Shown here piece by piece: positions 1,959-13,275 of a stretch of 64,000 bases of DNA. Origin of the DNA: Candidatus Latescibacterota bacterium (GTDB lineage Bacteria; Latescibacterota; UBA2968; UBA8231); assembly GCA_964291625.2 (NCBI GenBank), contig OZ220089.1, positions 2,432,001 to 2,496,000 of the forward strand, read 5' to 3'. Made by a program: the position numbers and the translations under genes. The notes under the pieces are model-generated. The model searched no databases. It was given only the letters and a program-made list of their open reading frames with translations, and was not told where the DNA came from. Numbering within the stretch: the stretch's first letter is position 1; the number at the start of each line of letters is the position of its first letter.

Positions 1959-3113
1959 GTGGCCTACCACACCATCTGGTCCTACCTGTGGGACCTGGTC
2001 GACGACGGCATCGAGGACTCCGTCCGCTACCTCGGAGAGGAGCTCGGCCTCGACGCCATCAGCGTCGCCACCGCGTATCACACCTTTCAGCAGTTGCGCC
2101 CCCAGCGCCCCGGCGCCAAGCTGCTCACGGCCAACACCGCGGCCGTGTACTTCCAGCCCGACCCCGCCCTCTACCACGACACCGTGCTGCGGCCCCAGGT
2201 TGCGCCCCTGGCCCGCCGCGCCAATCCCCTGGCCCGCCTGGCCGGGGCCTGCCAGCGCCAAGGGCTCGACCTGATCTCGTGGACCGTGGGCCTGCACAAC
2301 ACCCACTTGGCCGTGAACTACCCCCGCTGCGCCGAGCGCAACGCCTACGGCGACAACCTCGGCTGGTCCCTGTGCCCGGGAGAGCCGGACGTGCGCGCCT
2401 ACCTGATCGCCCTGTGCCAGGACCTGGTCCTCAACTACCGGGTCCGGCGCCTGGAGCTGGAGTCCTGCGCCTTTGGCGGGTACGGCCACGCCCACTACCA
2501 CGTCAAGGACGGGGTGAACCTGGGCCCGGCGGGGCGCTACCTGTTCGGTCTGAGCTTCTCCCCCGGCTGCCTGGACCGAGCGCGCGAGCGGGGGATCGAC
2601 GGCGAGGGCCTGCAGCGGTGGGTGCGCGGCCGGCTCGACCAGGTCTTCGCCGGCGGCCCTCCCCTGGAAGGCAGCCTCGAGGAGCTCGTCGTCGCCCATG
2701 CCGAGCTGCAGGCCTACCAGACCCTGCGCGAGGACCTGGTCGTCTCGCTGGTGGAGGAGATCCGCCAGGCCACCGGCGTCGAGGTCTCCTTCCTGCTCAT
2801 GGGCGACCGCTGGGGCGCGGGCATCGACGCGGCGCGCATGGCCGCCACCGCGGACCTGGTGGAGATCCTGGCCTACGTCGATGCCCCGGAGAAGATCACC
2901 CAGCGGCTGGCGGCCATGAGAGAGACCGTGGCCGATCTGCGGCGCCTGGTGGTGGGCCTGCAGGCCTACTATCCCTGCGCGGTCGACGCCGACGGGCTGC
3001 TGGCCCAGGTGGAGGCGGCCCGGCGCGAAGGTGTGGAGCAGTTCTCCTACTACAACTACGGCATCATGCCCCGCCCCAACCTGGGGTGGCTGAGACGCTG
3101 CATCCTCGCCTGA
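1959..3113 (+). CDS. TIM-barrel glycoside-hydrolase-like hypothetical protein
   Basis: GTG 1 nt after the upstream stop; host-like codon usage; motifs YLWDL, GLHN, LCP, YYNYG. Confidence 0.65.
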   Translation: MAYHTIWSYLWDLVDDGIEDSVRYLGEELGLDAISVATAYHTFQQLRPQRPGAKLLTANTAAVYFQPDPALYHDTVLRPQVAPLARRANPLARLAGACQRQGLDLISWTVGLHNTHLAVNYPRCAERNAYGDNLGWSLCPGEPDVRAYLIALCQDLVLNYRVRRLELESCAFGGYGHAHYHVKDGVNLGPAGRYLFGLSFSPGCLDRARERGIDGEGLQRWVRGRLDQVFAGGPPLEGSLEELVVAHAELQAYQTLREDLVVSLVEEIRQATGVEVSFLLMGDRWGAGIDAARMAATADLVEILAYVDAPEKITQRLAAMRETVADLRRLVVGLQAYYPCAVDADGLLAQVEAARREGVEQFSYYNYGIMPRPNLGWLRRCILA

Positions 3114-3191
3114 CGCTCCAGGCGAAGCACCCCCGGCAGGCGCCCCTCGACGTGCATCCCTAAATTGACACCGATGCGCAACGAATCGGCG

Positions 3192-3503
3192 ATGACCGAG
3201 AGGCTTCTCGGATGCCGGCGGTACGGCTTGAGCGGCGGCATCGTGGCTCTCGCCGCCCTCGTGCTCGCCCTGTCCCTCTCCCTGCCTCTGCTGCACCACC
3301 TGCACCACGGCGGGCAGCTCGAGATCGAGGAGTGCCCGGTATCGGCTCTCTCCACGGTCCTGTCCCTCGCCGTCCTTGCCGTCTTCGGCCTGCTGCCGCT
3401 GGCGGCGCCGCCCCGCGATACCCCTCTCTGCCATCCCGAGGTCGTCGCGCCCTGCGCCATCCACCTGGCCACGCAGGGCCCCCGCGCACCTCCCCGCTCC
3501 TGA
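3192..3503 (+). CDS. DUF2946/CruR-like small membrane leader peptide ending in a RAPP motif
   Basis: Hydrophobic segment, then HHLHH, ECPVS, a second hydrophobic stretch and C-terminal QGPRAPPRS*. Lies upstream of a TonB receptor. Start uncertain (3165, 3192 or 3228). Confidence 0.75.
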   Translation: MTERLLGCRRYGLSGGIVALAALVLALSLSLPLLHHLHHGGQLEIEECPVSALSTVLSLAVLAVFGLLPLAAPPRDTPLCHPEVVAPCAIHLATQGPRAPPRS

Positions 3504-3560
3504 GCATCCGCACCTGATCGACTGAAGTCGCCTCGGCGGTCCACCGCCGGGTGCGGATGC
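3504..3560 (+). promoter_or_regulatory. Multi-stem RNA structure directly after the leader ORF stop (attenuator/terminator-like)
   Basis: Perfect 11-bp stem GCATCCGCACC (3504-3514)/GGTGCGGATGC (3550-3560) enclosing two small hairpins, CGAC-tgaa-GTCG and GGCGG-tcca-CCGCC. Confidence 0.55.
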
Positions 3561-3641
3561 GTTCTCCTGCCGTACCTCCGGGATCAGACCGGCAAGGGGC
3601 CGGCTGTCCCCTTCCCTCAACTCAGACGGAGAACCCAGGAA

Positions 3642-4199
3642 ATGCTCAGGAAATTCACCACCTTCAGCACCGCTCTCCTCTTCCTCATCCTGACGGGATG
3701 CGGCGACGACGACAACCCCGTCGATCCCGACCACGGTGAGGAAGATCACGCCGAAGCCGTCGGTCTGATCATCCGCAGCAGCGGCGAGGAGCTCGTCCGC
3801 TACGAGAACGGCGAGGTCGACGGCGTCATCGAGGTCGGACACGACCGGGAGACGCCCCTGCTCACGGTGCGCTTCATCGCCGAGGACGGCGACCTCTTCG
3901 TCCCTGACGCGGACGACGACTTCTCCCTGGGCTGGGAGATCGGCGACGAGGAGATCGCCGAGGTGGAGCAGCACGAGATGGACGGCCCCTGGGCCTTCCA
4001 CATCGTCGGCCTCGGAGAGGGTGAGACCACCCTCGTCCTCAAGCTCAACCACGCCGGACACGCCGACTTCGTCTCCAAGGAGATCGAGATCCACGTCGAG
4101 GAGGGCGGTCCGGGAGAGGACCCCGACCAGGACCACGACCACGACGACGAGGACGAGGATGAGGAAGGCCACGACGACGAAGGCGACGACGACGGCTAG
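3642..4199 (+). CDS. His/Asp/Glu-rich lipoprotein, putative metal-binding
   Basis: Lipobox LTGC, DHGEEDHAEAVG motif, H.GH.DF motif, acidic His tail DQDHDHDDEDEDEEGHDD. Confidence 0.8.
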   Translation: MLRKFTTFSTALLFLILTGCGDDDNPVDPDHGEEDHAEAVGLIIRSSGEELVRYENGEVDGVIEVGHDRETPLLTVRFIAEDGDLFVPDADDDFSLGWEIGDEEIAEVEQHEMDGPWAFHIVGLGEGETTLVLKLNHAGHADFVSKEIEIHVEEGGPGEDPDQDHDHDDEDEDEEGHDDEGDDDG

Positions 4200-4202
4200 A
4201 CC

Positions 4203-6407
4203 TTGCGTCTCGTCCCTCTCTCCCTTCTCCTCCTGGGTCTGGCCGCGGTCCCCGCCCGCGGCCGGACCGGCGCCCTGGCCGGCCACGTGGTCGACAACGA
4301 GAGCGGCCAGGCCGTGGGCTGGACCACCGTGGTCCTCGAGGGCCTCGACCGGGCGCGGACCAGCGACGCCGGGGGGTACTTCTTCTTCGCCAACGTACCC
4401 CCCGGCGTCCATGTCCTGCGCAGCCTGCGCATGGGCTACCACGAGGCCCGCTTCGAGGTCGAGGTAACCGCCGGGGACACGACCCACGTCGATCTGCAGA
4501 TCGGCCACGAGACGATCGCCGTGAGGGCCGTGGTCGTCGAGGGCGAACGGGTCCACCTCTCCCCGCTCCAGGAACCGGAGGTGGTCTTCAGCAGCAGCAA
4601 GCTGCGCCAGAACCTGAGCCGCACCATCGCCGAGACGATCGACTACGAGCCGGGCATCGCCCAGCGCTCCATGGGGCCGGCGCCGTCGCGGCCGGTGCTG
4701 CGCGGCCTGGGAGGCGACCGCCTGCTGGTGCTCGAGGACGGGGAGCGCACCGGCGATCTCTCGGCCACCTCCTCGGACCACGCCGTGGCCATCGAGCCGA
4801 TGACCACCGAGCGCATCGAGGTCGTGCGCGGGCCCCGGACCCTGCTCCACGGCTCCAACGCCTTGGCCGGGGTGGTCAACGTGGTCCGGGGATACGTGCC
4901 CTCCGAGCTGCCCGAGGGCCTGAGGGGCTCCTTCACCTGGCAGGGGGAGAGCGTCAACCGGGGCCTGGCCGGCGGCCTGGCCCTGGAGCATGCTCTCGGG
5001 CCGGTGGCGGTGCGGGCCGACGGCAGTCTGCGCGACGCCGACGCCATCGGCACCCCGCGCGGGGAGCTGCCCAACACCGAGATCCGCACGGGCAACACCT
5101 CCGTCGGCGTCGGGCTGGTGCGGCCCTGGGGGCACGCGGGCGTCTCCGGCAGCCTCTACGACTCCGACTACGGCATCCCCCCCGACCCCGAGGGCGGCCA
5201 CCCCCACGGCGTCTCCGTCGAGCTGTTGCGCCAGCATCTCGAGGGGCGGGGCGAGATCCTCACCGGCCCGGCTTGGCTCCAGCGCCTGGAGCTGCACCAC
5301 TCCTTCTCGCGCTACCAGCACGGCGAGTTCGAGGCGGACGGCTCCCTCGGCATGGAGTTCGGCGTCCTCTCCCATCACCTCGGCGCCCTGGCCCACCTCG
5401 AGCCCCTGGGGCCCGTGGCCGACGGCGCCGCCGGCGTGTGGTACGAGTACCGGAACTACGCCGCCGCCGGGCTCAACTTCACCCCCGCCGCCGATGAGTA
5501 CGCCGGGGCCCTCTACACCTACCAGGAGACGGAGGCCGGGCCGTGGTCCGCCAGCGCCGCCCTGCGCTTCGACGCCCGCCGCGTCGAGCCCCGTGAGGAG
5601 CGGGAATCCCGGACGGTGGGCCGCATCCGCAGCCGCGACTTTGGCGGCTTCTCCGCCGGCCTGTCCGGCCACTACCGGGCCACCTCGAGCCTGACCCTGG
5701 GCTCGACCCTGATGCGCACCTTCCGGGCCCCCGGCATCGAGGAGCTGTTTTCCGAGGGGCCCCACCTGGCCGCCTATTCCTACGAGGTCGGCAACGGGAA
5801 CCTGGACAGCGAGCGCGGCCGGGGGCTGGAGGTCTTCGCCGAGTACCGGCGCCAGGACGGCCAGATCCACCTGGCCTTCTTCCGCAACGCCATCGACGGC
5901 TACATCTTCCCCAAGAACACGGGCGAGCGCAGCCTGCGCCGGGCCGATCTCTTCCTCTACAGGATGGTGGGGGAGCCGGTCCTCATGCACGGTGCCGAGG
6001 TCGCCTTCGACTGGTTCCTCGCCCGTCACTGGAAGGGGGCCGGAACCCTCAGCTACGTGCAAGGCCACCTCACCGACCTCGACGACGAGCCCCTGCCGCG
6101 CCTCCCCCCCCTGCAGGGGCGGGTCACCCTCAGCTGGGAGCCGTCCGAGGCCCTGAAGGCGGCGGCCGCCCTGCGCCTGGCCGCCGACCAGGACCGCCCC
6201 GGGGAGTTCGAGGAACCCACCGAGGGCTACGCGGTCCTCGACCTCTCGGGCGAGCACCACGTGCACTGGGGAGGGCGCCTGCACACCCTCTCCCTGACCC
6301 TGGAGAACGCCACCGACGCGGTCTACCGCAACCACCTCAACCGCGTCAAGGAGATCCTGCCCGAGCCGGGCCGCAACCTCCGTCTGCTCTACAAGATGTT
6401 CTTCTGA
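4203..6407 (+). CDS. TonB-dependent receptor (ZnuD-like metal uptake)
   Basis: N-terminal carboxypeptidase-regulatory-like domain, plug motifs SRPVLRG, SSDHAVAIEP and RIEVVRGP, GPHLA loop, PGRNLRLLYKMFF end. Confidence 0.92.
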   Translation: MRLVPLSLLLLGLAAVPARGRTGALAGHVVDNESGQAVGWTTVVLEGLDRARTSDAGGYFFFANVPPGVHVLRSLRMGYHEARFEVEVTAGDTTHVDLQIGHETIAVRAVVVEGERVHLSPLQEPEVVFSSSKLRQNLSRTIAETIDYEPGIAQRSMGPAPSRPVLRGLGGDRLLVLEDGERTGDLSATSSDHAVAIEPMTTERIEVVRGPRTLLHGSNALAGVVNVVRGYVPSELPEGLRGSFTWQGESVNRGLAGGLALEHALGPVAVRADGSLRDADAIGTPRGELPNTEIRTGNTSVGVGLVRPWGHAGVSGSLYDSDYGIPPDPEGGHPHGVSVELLRQHLEGRGEILTGPAWLQRLELHHSFSRYQHGEFEADGSLGMEFGVLSHHLGALAHLEPLGPVADGAAGVWYEYRNYAAAGLNFTPAADEYAGALYTYQETEAGPWSASAALRFDARRVEPREERESRTVGRIRSRDFGGFSAGLSGHYRATSSLTLGSTLMRTFRAPGIEELFSEGPHLAAYSYEVGNGNLDSERGRGLEVFAEYRRQDGQIHLAFFRNAIDGYIFPKNTGERSLRRADLFLYRMVGEPVLMHGAEVAFDWFLARHWKGAGTLSYVQGHLTDLDDEPLPRLPPLQGRVTLSWEPSEALKAAAALRLAADQDRPGEFEEPTEGYAVLDLSGEHHVHWGGRLHTLSLTLENATDAVYRNHLNRVKEILPEPGRNLRLLYKMFF

Positions 6408-6496
6408 AGCATCGGCGATCTCCCTCGCCCGAAACGGGCCCGCCGGCCTACATTTGCCGTCGAGGTTCGGCCCCCAAACGTCACCCGGAGGATCCC

Positions 6497-7504
6497 ATGC
6501 CCGCCCTCAGCCGCGAGCAGGTCGAGCACTTCGAAGAGCAGGGCTACGTCGTCGTCGACAACGTCATCGACCCGGAGAAGACCCTCGATCCCGTGATCGA
6601 GGAGTACGCCGAGGTCCTCGACCGGCTCGCCGGCGAGCTCCACGAGCGCGGCGAGATCCCCTCGCGCTACGAGGACCTCGAGTTCGGCGACCGCTACATC
6701 CGGATCTGCATCGAGACCGGGGCCGTCCACAGCCAGTACTTCGACTTCTCCCTGCCCTTCCAGAACGTCAGGCCCGACACCCCCTTCTGGGCCGGCCCCG
6801 CCGTCTTCCGGGCCCTCACCGACGAGGACCTGCTCGACGCGGTGGAGTCCCTCATCGGCCCCGAGATCTACTCCAATCCCGTGCAGCACGTACGCATCAA
6901 GCCGCCCGAGCGCCACCTGCCCACCAATGCCCACGGCAACGCCATCCTCGGGGCCACCCACTGGCACCAGGACCACGGCGTGGTCACCGAGGAAGCCGAC
7001 GAGACCCGCATGCTCACGGTCTGGTTCTCGCTCGAGGACACGCCCATGGAGAAGGGGCCCCTCCACCTCGTGCCGGGCTCGCACCGCACCGGCCTGCTGC
7101 CCCACTGCCCCAACTACATGGGCAACGGCCCCAAGTCCGCCGGCAGCACCCAGATCCCCGAGAAGCTCTTCGACGCCGAGCACTCGCGGGCCCTCCCGGT
7201 GGCTCCGGGCGCGGTCATCTTCATGCACAAGCAGACCGTCCACGGCTCGCTCTCCAACGTCAGCGACGAGGTCCGCTTCAGCTTCGACCTGCGCTACAAC
7301 CCCACCCACGAGCCCACCGGCCGCACCGCCTTCCCCGGCTTCGTGGCCCGCAGCCGCGCCAACCCTTCGACCGAGCTCCGCGATCCCGAAGCCTGGCACA
7401 GCTCCTGGCTCGAGGCGCGCGCCAACATGTCGATGATCAACCAGGGCGGCAAGATCGACATCCCCTTCCGCCGCCCCAAGACCGAGCACCCCCTCTGCGC
7501 CTGA
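6497..7504 (+). CDS. Phytanoyl-CoA dioxygenase (PhyH) family Fe/2OG oxygenase
   Basis: F.EQGYVV, WHQD, LVPGSH, VHGS.SN...RFSFDLRY. Confidence 0.9.
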   Translation: MPALSREQVEHFEEQGYVVVDNVIDPEKTLDPVIEEYAEVLDRLAGELHERGEIPSRYEDLEFGDRYIRICIETGAVHSQYFDFSLPFQNVRPDTPFWAGPAVFRALTDEDLLDAVESLIGPEIYSNPVQHVRIKPPERHLPTNAHGNAILGATHWHQDHGVVTEEADETRMLTVWFSLEDTPMEKGPLHLVPGSHRTGLLPHCPNYMGNGPKSAGSTQIPEKLFDAEHSRALPVAPGAVIFMHKQTVHGSLSNVSDEVRFSFDLRYNPTHEPTGRTAFPGFVARSRANPSTELRDPEAWHSSWLEARANMSMINQGGKIDIPFRRPKTEHPLCA

Positions 7505-11788: not shown

Positions 11789-12127
11789 TCAGAACCGTCC
11801 CGCCAGAGACTCCAGTCGTTTGCAGATCTCGTCCCTTGGGAGGAAGACCGAGCCGTCGGATTTCCAAGCCCGCAGAGCCTCCACCAGCAGGGATATGTCG
11901 CAGGTTTCGGCACGTGCCAGCTCGTCAATTACCCAAAGCACGCCGTGGACCCGAAGCCCCCTGTCGGTTGCCACTTTCCGGAGGAAGGCGTCGCCGGTCA
12001 GCAAGATGCCCCGGTTCACATGTGCGGTAACGAGACAGAAGCAGTCGTTCGCAGACAGGGCACGGTGGCGGCCCTTGAGTGCGAATGCCTGCGCGACCTC
12101 GTCAGCTGTCAGATTGACACAGGTCAC
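11789..12127 (-). pseudogene. PIN-domain protein, apparently N-terminally truncated
   Basis: GTG overlaps the upstream stop. The PIN C-terminal half is present (LSANDCFCL...ILLTGDAFLRK...VHGVLWVIDEL), but the N-terminal strand with the first catalytic Asp is not seen. Confidence 0.6.
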
Positions 12128-13202
12128 TGAATGGGCGGACCGCTGATCTGCTGCTCGACCGCGTCGAGGGACTCGTCGAGAAGAGTGGCCGCACGCACCG
12201 GCGAGATCAGCTCTTCGCCGACGGCACGCCAGACAAGTCGCTCGAAGCGCTGGGGCTTCTCGAATGCCCCGAATCCTTGATCGGAGCCGATCGGTTCTGG
12301 TTCCGACTTTCGCCAGGAGCGGGCAAAGGTCCTGAAGGCGCGCTCGACGGCGGAAGGACGCAGGATGCCGACTTGACCGAGGCGGACCAACATTGCGGCT
12401 GCTGAGACGCCGTAGGTGTGCTTGAGGCGGATGATTTCGTAGTAGGTGACGCGGTGACGGCTTGTTCCGGCTTCCTCCAGGAGATGTTTGCGTGGGACGA
12501 GGAAGGCGCCTGCGAAGCGGTTCATTGCCGCCTCCAGCTTGATGGCAGGGTTTCCGGTGGAACGGATGATTCTGTGTGCGAGCTCGTGGGCCAAGGTGAG
12601 GCGTTTGCGCTCCACCGTCGTCCACTTCGATACCGCTACTGCATCGACGACCACCCTGCCGTCTCGCATGACGTGGCAAGCCAAACCGCTGATGCGCTCA
12701 GGGAGGTCTCCTTCGACCACCTTTATTCCCTTCTCCTCAAGGAGGGCGCACAGGCTGGGCACTGGATCGTTGCCAAGGTCCCACGCGTTGCGGACCTCAT
12801 CGGCCTGGTGTCGATCTCTTCTTCGGTGGCGACGCTGTCGCAGCGGCGATCCGCGAACGAGTCGCCTGGCGGCGATAGTTCGAGGACTTCCTCGATTGTC
12901 AGGTACCGCTCGAGGTTTTCGATGAGGACGGCTTCGGCCCTGGCGCGGTCGCTGGGGGAAGTCCTGGAGTGCTTGCGGAACTCAAGGCCGTCGACCGCCT
13001 CGACTTGGGTGCTCATCAGGAAGTCCAGCGAGACATCGAGCGCCTTGCCGAGGCCCACCAGAACCGCCGAAGAGGGCATCATCTTGCCCGCCTCGTACTT
13101 GCTGATGGCCTGCGCGGTGACTCTCGGCTCCGTCCGCTCCGCAAGTGACCGCATGGAAAGGCCTGCTCGCTTACGGGCGAGCCGAAGTCGTCTTCCAAAC
13201 AT
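12124..13202 (-). pseudogene. XRE-family HTH plus ImmA/IrrE (peptidase M78) regulator, frameshifted near 12806
   Basis: HTH MFGRRLRLARKRAGLS...AISKYE in one frame. ADEVRNAWDLGNDPVPSL...RLTLAHELAH (HExxH) continues in another frame. One base appears to be missing at ACC-AG-GCC. Confidence 0.8.
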
Positions 13203-13221
13203 GCCACCCTCTCCTTTCTCG

Positions 13222-13275
13222 CAACTGATGGTTGACAGCGCAAGCGTCACTGTCGACATCGTCAACCATGAGTTG
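13222..13275. promoter_or_regulatory. Inverted repeat, probable XRE autoregulatory operator
   Basis: CAACTGATGGTTGAC (13222-13236) / GTCAACCATGAGTTG (13261-13275), 14 of 15 complementary, just upstream of the XRE start. Confidence 0.55.

Follow-up and report, generated by a model that had tools for sequence, protein, structure and literature searches.

A RAPP-tailed leader precedes a lipoprotein and a ZnuD-like receptor

The window analysed here, a stretch of 64,000 nucleotides (nt) from a Candidatus Latescibacterota bacterium (contig OZ220089.1, positions 2,432,001 to 2,496,000 of the forward strand), contains near its start a short open reading frame (ORF) that ends in the motif RAPP and is followed by genes for a lipoprotein and a TonB-dependent receptor. 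A sequence-only reading of this DNA had proposed that the ORF encodes an arrest-peptide leader that senses a metal as a nascent chain and heads a metal-uptake operon. The genes and leader features at this locus, in window positions, are as follows.

3192..3503, + strand: leader ORF, 103 amino acids (aa) from ATG 3192, a two-helix membrane hairpin with RAPP at its C-terminus
3237..3293, + strand: transmembrane (TM) helix 1, residues 16-34, the best hydrophobic 19-mer (mean Kyte-Doolittle 2.47)
3294..3308, + strand: HHLHH, residues 35-39; relatives carry HxxxH or HxH
3333..3344, + strand: CPVS, within ECPVS (residues 47-51), 46 residues ahead of the RAPP Arg
3345..3401, + strand: TM helix 2, residues 52-70 (mean Kyte-Doolittle 2.27)
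3483..3494, + strand: RAPP, residues 98-101, in a terminal GPRAPPRS, two residues before the stop
3642..4199, + strand: lipoprotein of an unnamed family, with a Big_2/Ig-like domain and a His/Asp/Glu tail
4203..6407, + strand: ZnuD-like TonB-dependent receptor with an N-terminal CarboxypepD_reg domain, 3 nt after the lipoprotein gene

The stop codon of the leader (TGA) lies at 3501-3503 on the + strand, with candidate starts at TTG 3165, ATG 3174 and ATG 3192, the last of which is used here to number its residues. The elements that the sequence-only reading had ascribed to this ORF, namely two hydrophobic stretches, HHLHH, ECPVS and a terminal GPRAPPRS with RAPP at 3483-3494, are all present. 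Its description of a 'His5/single-Cys' site has to be amended, since there are four His in the cluster and, in the leader as a whole, six His alongside four Cys, of which H35, H39 and C48 alone are widely conserved among relatives. A five-His site was rejected because H36 and H38 are clade-specific and H91 would sit inside the ribosome tunnel.

An AlphaFold model of the leader presents a helix at residues 9-38, a loop and a second helix at residues 49-71, with a modest confidence (mean predicted local distance difference test 70.7, predicted template modelling score 0.39) that makes it too weak for a fold search or for His/Cys geometry. The loop carrying H35, H39 and C48 is acidic and both its flanks are basic (loop mean charge +0.16/-3.16, from charge counts). 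Under the positive-inside rule of membrane topology, this charge bias argues for a periplasmic His/Cys loop, and the N-terminus of helix 1 is inferred to lie inside. The N-terminal end of helix 2 is 48 residues away from the Pro predicted to occupy the ribosomal peptidyl (P) site, a distance with a median of 47 in 58 relatives; the P-site codon of this putative stall is predicted at 3489-3491 from the toeprint of the copper sensor CruR (PMC12992588). No sigma-70 promoter and no intrinsic terminator were called in 3050-3700, an Rfam scan of 2900-6600 returned one chance match and no riboswitch, and a second leader was not found within the 64-kb window.

The leader is conserved in related loci

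The six frames of the window, which has a GC content of 70%, contain 64 instances of the motif R[AG]PP. Being so common by chance, it proves nothing on its own, and a conservation test was needed. A scan of GTDB genomes with a 29-sequence receptor alignment was performed, and the best 80 of 284 confirmed matches yielded 78 loci (designated here by L numbers); all ranges and frequencies reported for them describe this sample of best matches, which is not exhaustive. The loci span Latescibacterota, KSB1, Calditrichota, Rhodothermota, Balneolota, Gemmatimonadota and others. The closest named relatives of the receptor are labelled Ca. Latescibacterota, and one that is 96% identical and labelled Gemmatimonadaceae nests in the same clade.

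A motif-only screen, accepting any ORF that ends just 5' of the lipoprotein or receptor gene with R[AGS]PP in its last 20 residues, identified such an ORF at 58 of the 78 loci. A Cys at the spacing of the family was present in 67 of 68 distinct ORFs from this screen, the remaining one being a shadow frame. When KAPP and one long-tailed case were admitted, 75 leaders were obtained at 66 of the 78 loci, where 0.37 loci would be expected by chance from the background rate (17 background hits, of which three are themselves extra leaders). Since a Cys and a His were prerequisites in this larger screen, the invariance of C and PP in alignment A4 is partly built in, and two of its Cys assignments were set by hand. 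A leader is missing at 12 loci. Five of these are truncated on the upstream side, three hold a copy of the receptor that follows a ZIP remnant, L016 retains only the leader tail and the remaining three have none. The tail motif is RAPP in 35 leaders, RGPP in 30, KAPP in seven and RSPP in three, with every one of the six Arg and four Pro codons in use. Such conservation of the residues across differing codons is consistent with an arrest that depends on the Arg and has Pro-Pro in the two ribosomal sites.

Among 25 leaders of one clade, nonsynonymous differences (pN 0.10) are rarer than synonymous ones (pS 0.25), for a pN/pS of about 0.4; a ratio of about 0.4 was also obtained for the window leader against L002 and L003, and the comparison with L001, where the lipoprotein has been lost, gave about 0.84. 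Judged by these ratios, the leader is under purifying selection covering both helices. In an alignment of 38 leaders (37 of the 75 entered it, and 53 entered the Pfam scan described below), H35 and H39 (each in at least 90%), C48 and the arrest motif are kept. The HxxHH and CxxC/S patterns named by the sequence-only reading are conserved in part: H36 and H38 are restricted to a clade, and the fourth position of CPVS is variable, being occupied in relatives by C, Y, H, S, R, F, N or T. Overall, 35 of the 75 leaders carry CxxC and 40 a single Cys. A second TM helix is present in 58 (39 single-Cys and 19 CxxC) and missing in 17, of which 16 are CxxC. The Arg follows the Cys motif at a distance of 44-47 residues in all 58 two-helix leaders and 41-46 in the other 17. 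Taken with the recurrence of the tail, these data make it very probable that a real regulatory arrest-peptide leader heads the operon.

Relationship to known arrest peptides

CruR (Bp2923) of Bordetella pertussis, a DUF2946 (PF11162) protein, is a copper sensor (PMC9426467; arrest in PMC12992588) that arrests with Pro-Pro in the P and aminoacyl (A) sites (PMC12992588). Its Cys motif lies 45 residues from RAPP, and regulation is lost on adding five residues (PMC9426467). CutF of Rhodobacter capsulatus is also a copper sensor (bioRxiv 10.1101/2025.02.05.636593; PMC8456105), and a survey of 5,334 CutF-like proteins describes His-containing clusters, His-only clusters before Ni/Co genes, TonB neighbours and members in Bacteroidota (PMC9973294). 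Two points of the sequence-only reading, the distant phylum and a His-rich site not specific for copper, were already published for CutF-like proteins (PMC9973294), the list of which may already contain the two-helix leader family. RAPP/RGPP upstream ORFs precede TonB receptors throughout Gram-negative bacteria (PMC12992588, Fujiwara et al.), and at least nine rows in the source table of that work give a downstream gene annotated as a zinc-regulated TonB receptor; zinc has 0 occurrences in its main text, and six peptide motifs of the two-helix family were not found in the part of its supplements that was searched. Literature searches, most subscription papers lying outside them, found neither a zinc-responsive arrest peptide nor the two-helix leader family. 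The class (CruR/CutF/DUF2946-like) is known, and metal-sensing arrest has so far been shown in it for copper only.

Like CruR, the window leader has an N-terminal TM segment that can serve as export signal, is the first gene of a metal operon containing a TonB receptor for uptake, and carries RAPP within a few residues of the stop with its Cys about 45 residues ahead (46 here); both also present a long intergenic region (138 nt here versus 162 nt) and a 3' end richer in C than in G, and the predicted logic, in which metal relieves the stall and uptake is switched off, would be the same. The properties of CutF-like proteins set out in PMC9973294 are likewise found here (103-112 aa, below 150; PP at residues 100-101, among the last 15; a same-strand neighbour 138 nt away, inside the limit of 1 kb). 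Further traits that it may share with CutF are co-translational export, a periplasmic metal site, a proline-rich stall (predicted here) and a stalled ribosome that opens a stem hiding the Shine-Dalgarno (SD) sequence. The leader resembles ApdA/ApdP and the upstream ORFs of Fujiwara et al. (PMC12992588) in being a small secreted or TM protein with a C-terminal RAPP/RGPP upstream of a TonB receptor, and SecM in its predicted SD-sequestering stem, a standard device under arrest peptides (PMC10987492).

Several differences set it apart. Unlike CruR, the window leader combines one conserved Cys with two His instead of CxxC, has TM helix 2 between Cys and RAPP, precedes a ZnuD-like receptor that is not copper-linked, with a lipoprotein gene in between, shows a conserved helix between stall site and SD/AUG, and lies below PF11162 detection. 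CutF has CxxxC where HxxxH...C is found here, and copper induces its stall to turn on a detoxifying oxidase. Since the target here is uptake, the opposite sign is predicted.

Formal membership in DUF2946 is not borne out. Searches with the window leader returned no relevant Pfam or NCBIfam match, including PF11162, and the CxxC of DUF2946/CruR, present in 19 of the 58 two-helix relatives, is replaced in it by CPVS. At E <= 0.31, PF11162 matched 17 of 53 relatives, one of them above the cut-off (L072, of the one-helix type); the matches below the cut-off include nine two-helix relatives. Protein searches with the leader (19 matches) and with alignment A4 (27 matches) retrieved the same clade only and no named family, and the nearest named cluster to the leader in the Atlas is DUF2946 (0.91; family on 48% of members). 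The profiles of two-helix and one-helix leaders align only at the RAPP tail, with a probability of 31%, so that their homology rests on position, architecture and shared weak DUF2946 matches. The missing PF11162 match and this short profile alignment both weigh against a sensor of the CruR/CutF kind. The leader appears to work like CruR and CutF without being a formal DUF2946 member, and the proposal of a CruR-like arrest-peptide leader heading a metal-uptake operon in phyla of the Fibrobacteres-Chlorobi-Bacteroidetes (FCB) group is upheld by its recurrence, its tail and its CruR-like spacing.

Pairing between the predicted stall site and the lipoprotein start

Beyond what the sequence-only reading had noted, the analysis brought out the position of helix 2 and a pairing in the messenger RNA (mRNA) between the stall site and the start site of the lipoprotein gene. 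The elements involved are the following.

3498..3506, + strand: 5' arm of P1 (last codon and stop), a 9-bp complement of 3643-3651 or a 5-bp complement of 3636-3640
3504..3560, + strand: P2 hairpin, with arms 3504-3513 and 3551-3560 and compensatory changes among Latescibacterota
3561..3567, + strand: 5' arm of P3, an internal anti-SD complementary to 3628-3634
3628..3651, + strand: lipoprotein translation initiation region, with SD 3628-3634 and ATG 3642, sequestered in the predicted off fold

The predicted off state in Latescibacterota is a junction of P1, which joins the stall site to the AUG region, P2, which follows the stop, and P3, which joins anti-SD and SD. Pairing was tested on 35 de-replicated groups derived from 75 leader-start pairs, including the window. 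The mean pairing energy of the ribosome footprint with its own start was -12.0 kcal/mol, as compared with -9.2 kcal/mol for mismatched pairs, a difference reached in 0 of 20000 permutations. The excess peaks for the segment beginning with the P-site codon (-3.1), against -1.1 to +0.5 for segments 12-150 nt upstream. Perfect helices spanning 9 bp or more were found in 9 of 35 groups, sequence and register differing from case to case; their frequency is 0.3% among mismatched pairs and 1.4% among 210 upstream segments. The helices are cleanest in L045, L074, L033 and L070, the last of these being a locus of the cultured Rhodohalobacter sulfatireducens. If the footprint is masked, opening the start site costs on average 2.1 kcal/mol less, versus 0.2 kcal/mol with the ribosome 20 codons upstream (p 8e-5), and gains of at least 2 kcal/mol were obtained in 14 of 35 groups with the footprint masked versus 4 of 35 with the upstream ribosome, as well as in 28 of 38 related Latescibacterota-clade leaders. 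With the footprint taken to +21, the mean gain in 38 leaders of this clade was smaller than with +15 (13.0, 9.3, 10.7 kcal/mol). In P2, 97% of cells are paired and 15 cells present two-sided changes (0 of 500 shuffles), changes that largely separate two clades.

Other results weigh against a role for this helix. The opening gain of the window itself is only 0.5-3 kcal/mol and its SD stays paired in the equilibrium fold; the footprint has no significant preference for the lipoprotein start over the receptor start of the same genome (p 0.31 and 0.08); no more than 5 of 35 groups pair best with their own partner; and the pairing is missing in most Balneolaceae, which have no SD, and in long-spacer Calditrichota loci. 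On balance, the helix between stall site and SD/AUG probably belongs to the output of the leader.

The output might instead consist only of Rho-dependent termination of the CruR type, driven by the same sensor, with the SD/AUG pairing incidental. The last 75 nt of the leader present an excess of C over G in 35 of 35 groups (mean +0.34, versus -0.06 in the lipoprotein coding sequence), similar to the C>G bubble that holds the Rho utilization (rut) site in cruR (PMC9426467), no intrinsic terminator lies in 3050-3700, and many groups lack the helix. This skew is partly forced by Pro codons, however, and at four-fold sites the 3' end of the leader (+0.26), while above the rest of the leader (-0.06), equals the lipoprotein gene. 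That about 13 of 35 groups have a helix of at least 7 bp, varying in sequence and register, also argues against an incidental pairing, and Rho termination and SD/AUG occlusion can coexist. A Rho-only output is considered unlikely.

The downstream genes and the sensed metal

The succession of a His/Asp-rich lipoprotein and a ZnuD-like receptor that the sequence-only reading described was confirmed. The lipoprotein has its lipobox at Cys20 and contains 11 His, 30 Asp and 28 Glu in 185 aa, with H36, H137, H140 and D142 conserved. Its family comprises 533 clusters at 50% identity, has no Pfam name and presents one to five domain repeats; a fold search returned generic Ig/Big_2 matches only (best Z 9.7, root-mean-square deviation 2.6, 89 aligned) and no match to a metal protein. 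It is a probable metal-scavenging partner of the receptor and a candidate surface zinc-binding domain.

Among 24 families, the best NCBIfam match of the receptor is ZnuD (NF038289; 8e-44), at 150 bits for a cut-off of 950, and its best structural match is ZnuD in PDB entry 4rdr (3e-31). The high-affinity zinc site of ZnuD from Neisseria meningitidis consists of D99, H100, E340 and H499 (PMC4557270), to which D192, H193, E375 and H521 of the receptor align; a 14-residue offset between chain and paper numbering fits all four. These ligands are present at 77 of 78 loci, the remaining locus being truncated. Unlike ZnuD, the window receptor has an extra CarboxypepD_reg domain and a score far below the family cut-off, and the leader heads its operon where ZnuD is under Zur.

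Both the receptor and its neighbourhood inform the choice of metal. The receptor profile favours ZnuD (1.6e-61) over the copper porin OprC (1e-21). ZIP, COG0523, ZnuA/ZnuB-like or Fur-family neighbours occur at 23 of 78 loci; in L042 a ZigA protein, above cut-off, is encoded 18 nt 3' of the receptor, and L034 has a FolE2 neighbour. No copper chaperone or multicopper oxidase families were found among 111 scanned neighbour proteins, made up of 21 from recurring clusters and 90 of 157 flanking ORFs (those left out being apparent shadow frames, near-duplicates or already scanned). The sequence-only reading had taken the loss of the second Cys as a sign of a switch in metal. On the receptor tree, CxxC leaders are intermixed with single-Cys ones, and both types head receptors with the same four ZnuD ligands, so the number of Cys does not mark the cargo; the proposed switch was rejected also because CPAY and CPAC leaders stand in tandem within an operon. 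The zinc assignment relies on the ZnuD ligands of the receptor and on mostly zinc-type neighbours, and not on the lost Cys.

This assignment has to be set against several results. The D-H pair of the receptor belonged to the search pattern, leaving E375 and H521 as the only free tests. Most of the 23 loci with zinc neighbours are close Latescibacterota relatives, amounting to about six independent cases, and in the window itself no zinc gene lies beside the operon. The binding proteins of neighbouring ATP-binding cassette (ABC) systems match the AztC and MntC models, none of them reaching the cut-off, so that manganese may also be considered. Weighing these data, we favour zinc as the sensed metal, in line with the earlier suggestion of a non-copper metal.

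A promiscuous site, or one responding to Ni, Co, Mn or Cu, is the less probable option by some distance. His/Cys sites bind several ions, COG0523 proteins serve Co too, and the surroundings of some loci include CzcCBA-like genes, an SO_0444 Cu/Zn efflux gene that scores above cut-off and the ABC proteins scoring on MntC. His-only CutF-like clusters, moreover, precede HupE/UreJ Ni/Co genes (PMC9973294). The preference of the receptor for ZnuD over OprC, its four conserved zinc ligands, the ZigA and FolE2 neighbours and the absence of copper chaperones and multicopper oxidases from the scanned set all speak against it.

A model for zinc-dependent arrest

The data are compatible with a leader that senses metal in cis as a nascent chain, in the manner of CruR/CutF (DUF2946-like), and that we regard as the probable controller of a zinc-uptake operon. 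A metal-responsive leader in which the stall is the on state is likely, given that the targets import metal and that the stalled ribosome would cover the inhibitory strand. By analogy with CruR, ApdA and ApdP, the ribosome making the leader would arrest at RAPP. According to the computed geometry, and to a topology drawn from charge bias, helix 1 would at that stage be embedded in the membrane, the acidic loop with H35, H39 and C48 would be periplasmic and helix 2 would be just entering the translocon. At low zinc the arrest would hold, and the stalled ribosome would cover the last leader codons, which otherwise pair with the lipoprotein SD/AUG, together with part of the C-rich rut-like tract, allowing expression of the operon. 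Zinc bound at H35/H39/C48, with the help of nearby acids, could close the helical hairpin and add to the pull exerted by helix-2 insertion. Once arrest is released, the ribosome would terminate two codons on, the mRNA would fold over the start site and Rho may complete the shut-off; zinc-bound release and shut-off are the least certain of these steps.

The pull of helix 2 as transducer is a tentative proposal. The pulling force on a TM helix is half-maximal where the N-terminus of the helix lies about 45 residues from the peptidyl transferase centre, and residues of the upstream loop shift it (PMC7886326). The 17 of 75 leaders without helix 2 imply that a pull model cannot be general, and the Cys-to-Arg spacing resembles that of CruR, which needs no helix; both observations count against it. 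The most specific form of the model, a first known zinc-sensing arrest peptide whose periplasmic His-His-Cys site gates helix-2 insertion pull and whose SD/AUG switch re-evolved in several phyla, is likewise speculative. If true, the translocon would act as force transducer between outside zinc and the RAPP stall, the sign of CruR would be combined with the RNA output of SecM/CutF, two thresholds may arise from tandem copies with one and three Cys, and leader control may be interchangeable with Fur/Zur repression.

An improbable alternative is that the leader monitors membrane insertion or periplasmic thiol redox, as a SecM/MifM-type peptide, while a Fur/Zur repressor controls the response to zinc. 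A leader with two TM helices, the second of them placed at a pulling distance, would suit such a monitor, Fur-family genes occur at several loci and a TGCAAC-N3-GTTGCA palindrome lies 5' of the leader in L037, L042 and L057. Insertion monitoring needs no conserved His, His and Cys, however, and the downstream genes are not sec, yidC or dsb; as for the repressor, four palindrome patterns gave 0 hits in the 64-kb window, and the palindromes are putative regulator sites only. Lastly, a stable small membrane protein acting in trans as metal chaperone or receptor accessory, with RAPP as a relic, would fit purifying selection across both helices and a potentially stable two-helix hairpin, but is very hard to reconcile with a leader that is always the first gene and is re-duplicated along with each lipoprotein copy, and with the retention at fixed Cys distance of RAPP/RGPP, which rank among the most avoided bacterial tetrapeptides (PMC12992588).

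A cis-acting zinc sensor would add a post-transcriptional layer to zinc homeostasis in uncultured FCB phyla. Zinc homeostasis in bacteria is usually ascribed to Zur. Both tested members of this leader class, CruR and CutF, sense copper, and the present family would be its likely zinc case, with the unnamed Ig-fold, His-rich lipoproteins as candidate zinc-scavenging partners of ZnuD-like receptors. How metal binding outside the ribosome alters a stall inside it is a question posed in PMC9426467, PMC12992588 and PMC9973294, for which the present family offers a concrete force model, with the metal site immediately followed by a TM helix positioned where insertion force sets in. The natural variants of the family (one, two or three Cys; RAPP, RGPP or KAPP; tandem copies) make the coupling of metal to stall testable.

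Variant loci and neighbouring genes

Nine loci (L004, L006, L010, L014, L017, L018, L019, L020 and L023; e.g. L004:4851-6855) carry two leader-lipoprotein cassettes in tandem before the receptor. The first leader reads [HQ]LFH...CPAY, with one loop Cys, and the second LCH...CPAC, with three. The two extra Cys co-occur (12 CPAC versus 12 CPAY leaders), three FH leaders being CxxC without the third Cys, and the CPAY/CPAC cases represent two paralog lineages rather than independent events. Such pairs could respond at two thresholds; alternatively, two of the Cys could form a disulfide, with one thiol remaining free. Additional copies were observed in L034:733-1014, where a CxxC leader with an RSPP tail separates folE2 from the main leader, and in the Rhodothermales loci L065:2892-3326 and L067:3159-3593, where duplicated leaders precede a second TonB receptor region; in L033:4240-4624, a small His-containing ORF precedes a second receptor-like gene. 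In L001:6508-7001 the lipoprotein is deleted and its start fused to the receptor, H38/H39 are changed to Asp and the P1 partner has changed; with its pN/pS near 0.84, L001 may represent a decaying switch.

Some loci show signs of a different regulator. In L016:5167-6340 the sensor half of the leader is lost while the RGPP tail and the RNA elements are kept, and a Fur-family gene and a GATAAT-N2-ATTATC palindrome lie upstream. A similar palindrome precedes leaderless receptor copies (L009:6510, L012:6608, L044:3468 and 6811), which suggests that leader control is exchangeable with Fur/Zur repression. The perfect palindrome TGCAAC-N3-GTTGCA (L037:6071, L042:5356 and 13489, L057:6045) lies about 70-90 nt 5' of the leader in three Calditrichota, whose leaders end in KAPP, and adjoins a Fur-like gene in L042; it is a possible regulator box, for which the name 'Zur box' would be a guess. 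In L004-L029 and L047, a TTGCGT-N17-TAAAAT-like promoter about 11 nt 5' of the leader start implies a nearly leaderless mRNA for the leader. The window has TAAATT (3161-3166) 7 nt 5' of ATG 3174, with no good -35.

The PhyH gene (6497-7504) was rejected as an operon member, since L002 and L003 are the only loci in which it immediately follows the receptor. In L065-L069 and L072, a small unnamed membrane protein with HGDHVH is encoded 3' of the receptor (e.g. L066:9276-9566, - strand); it is convergent to the receptor in five Rhodothermales and has no Pfam match. Further along the window, an apparent XRE/IrrE-like regulator split over two frames (12124-13265) adjoins a PIN-like gene (11789-12679 region). 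Among the 26 'zinc' rows listed from the source table of PMC12992588, 16 are RAPP ORFs before TraR/DksA C4 zinc-finger genes; mostly short, many of them with a 'GLDVLRRSxDRAPP' tail, they form a separate leader family that apparently goes undiscussed.

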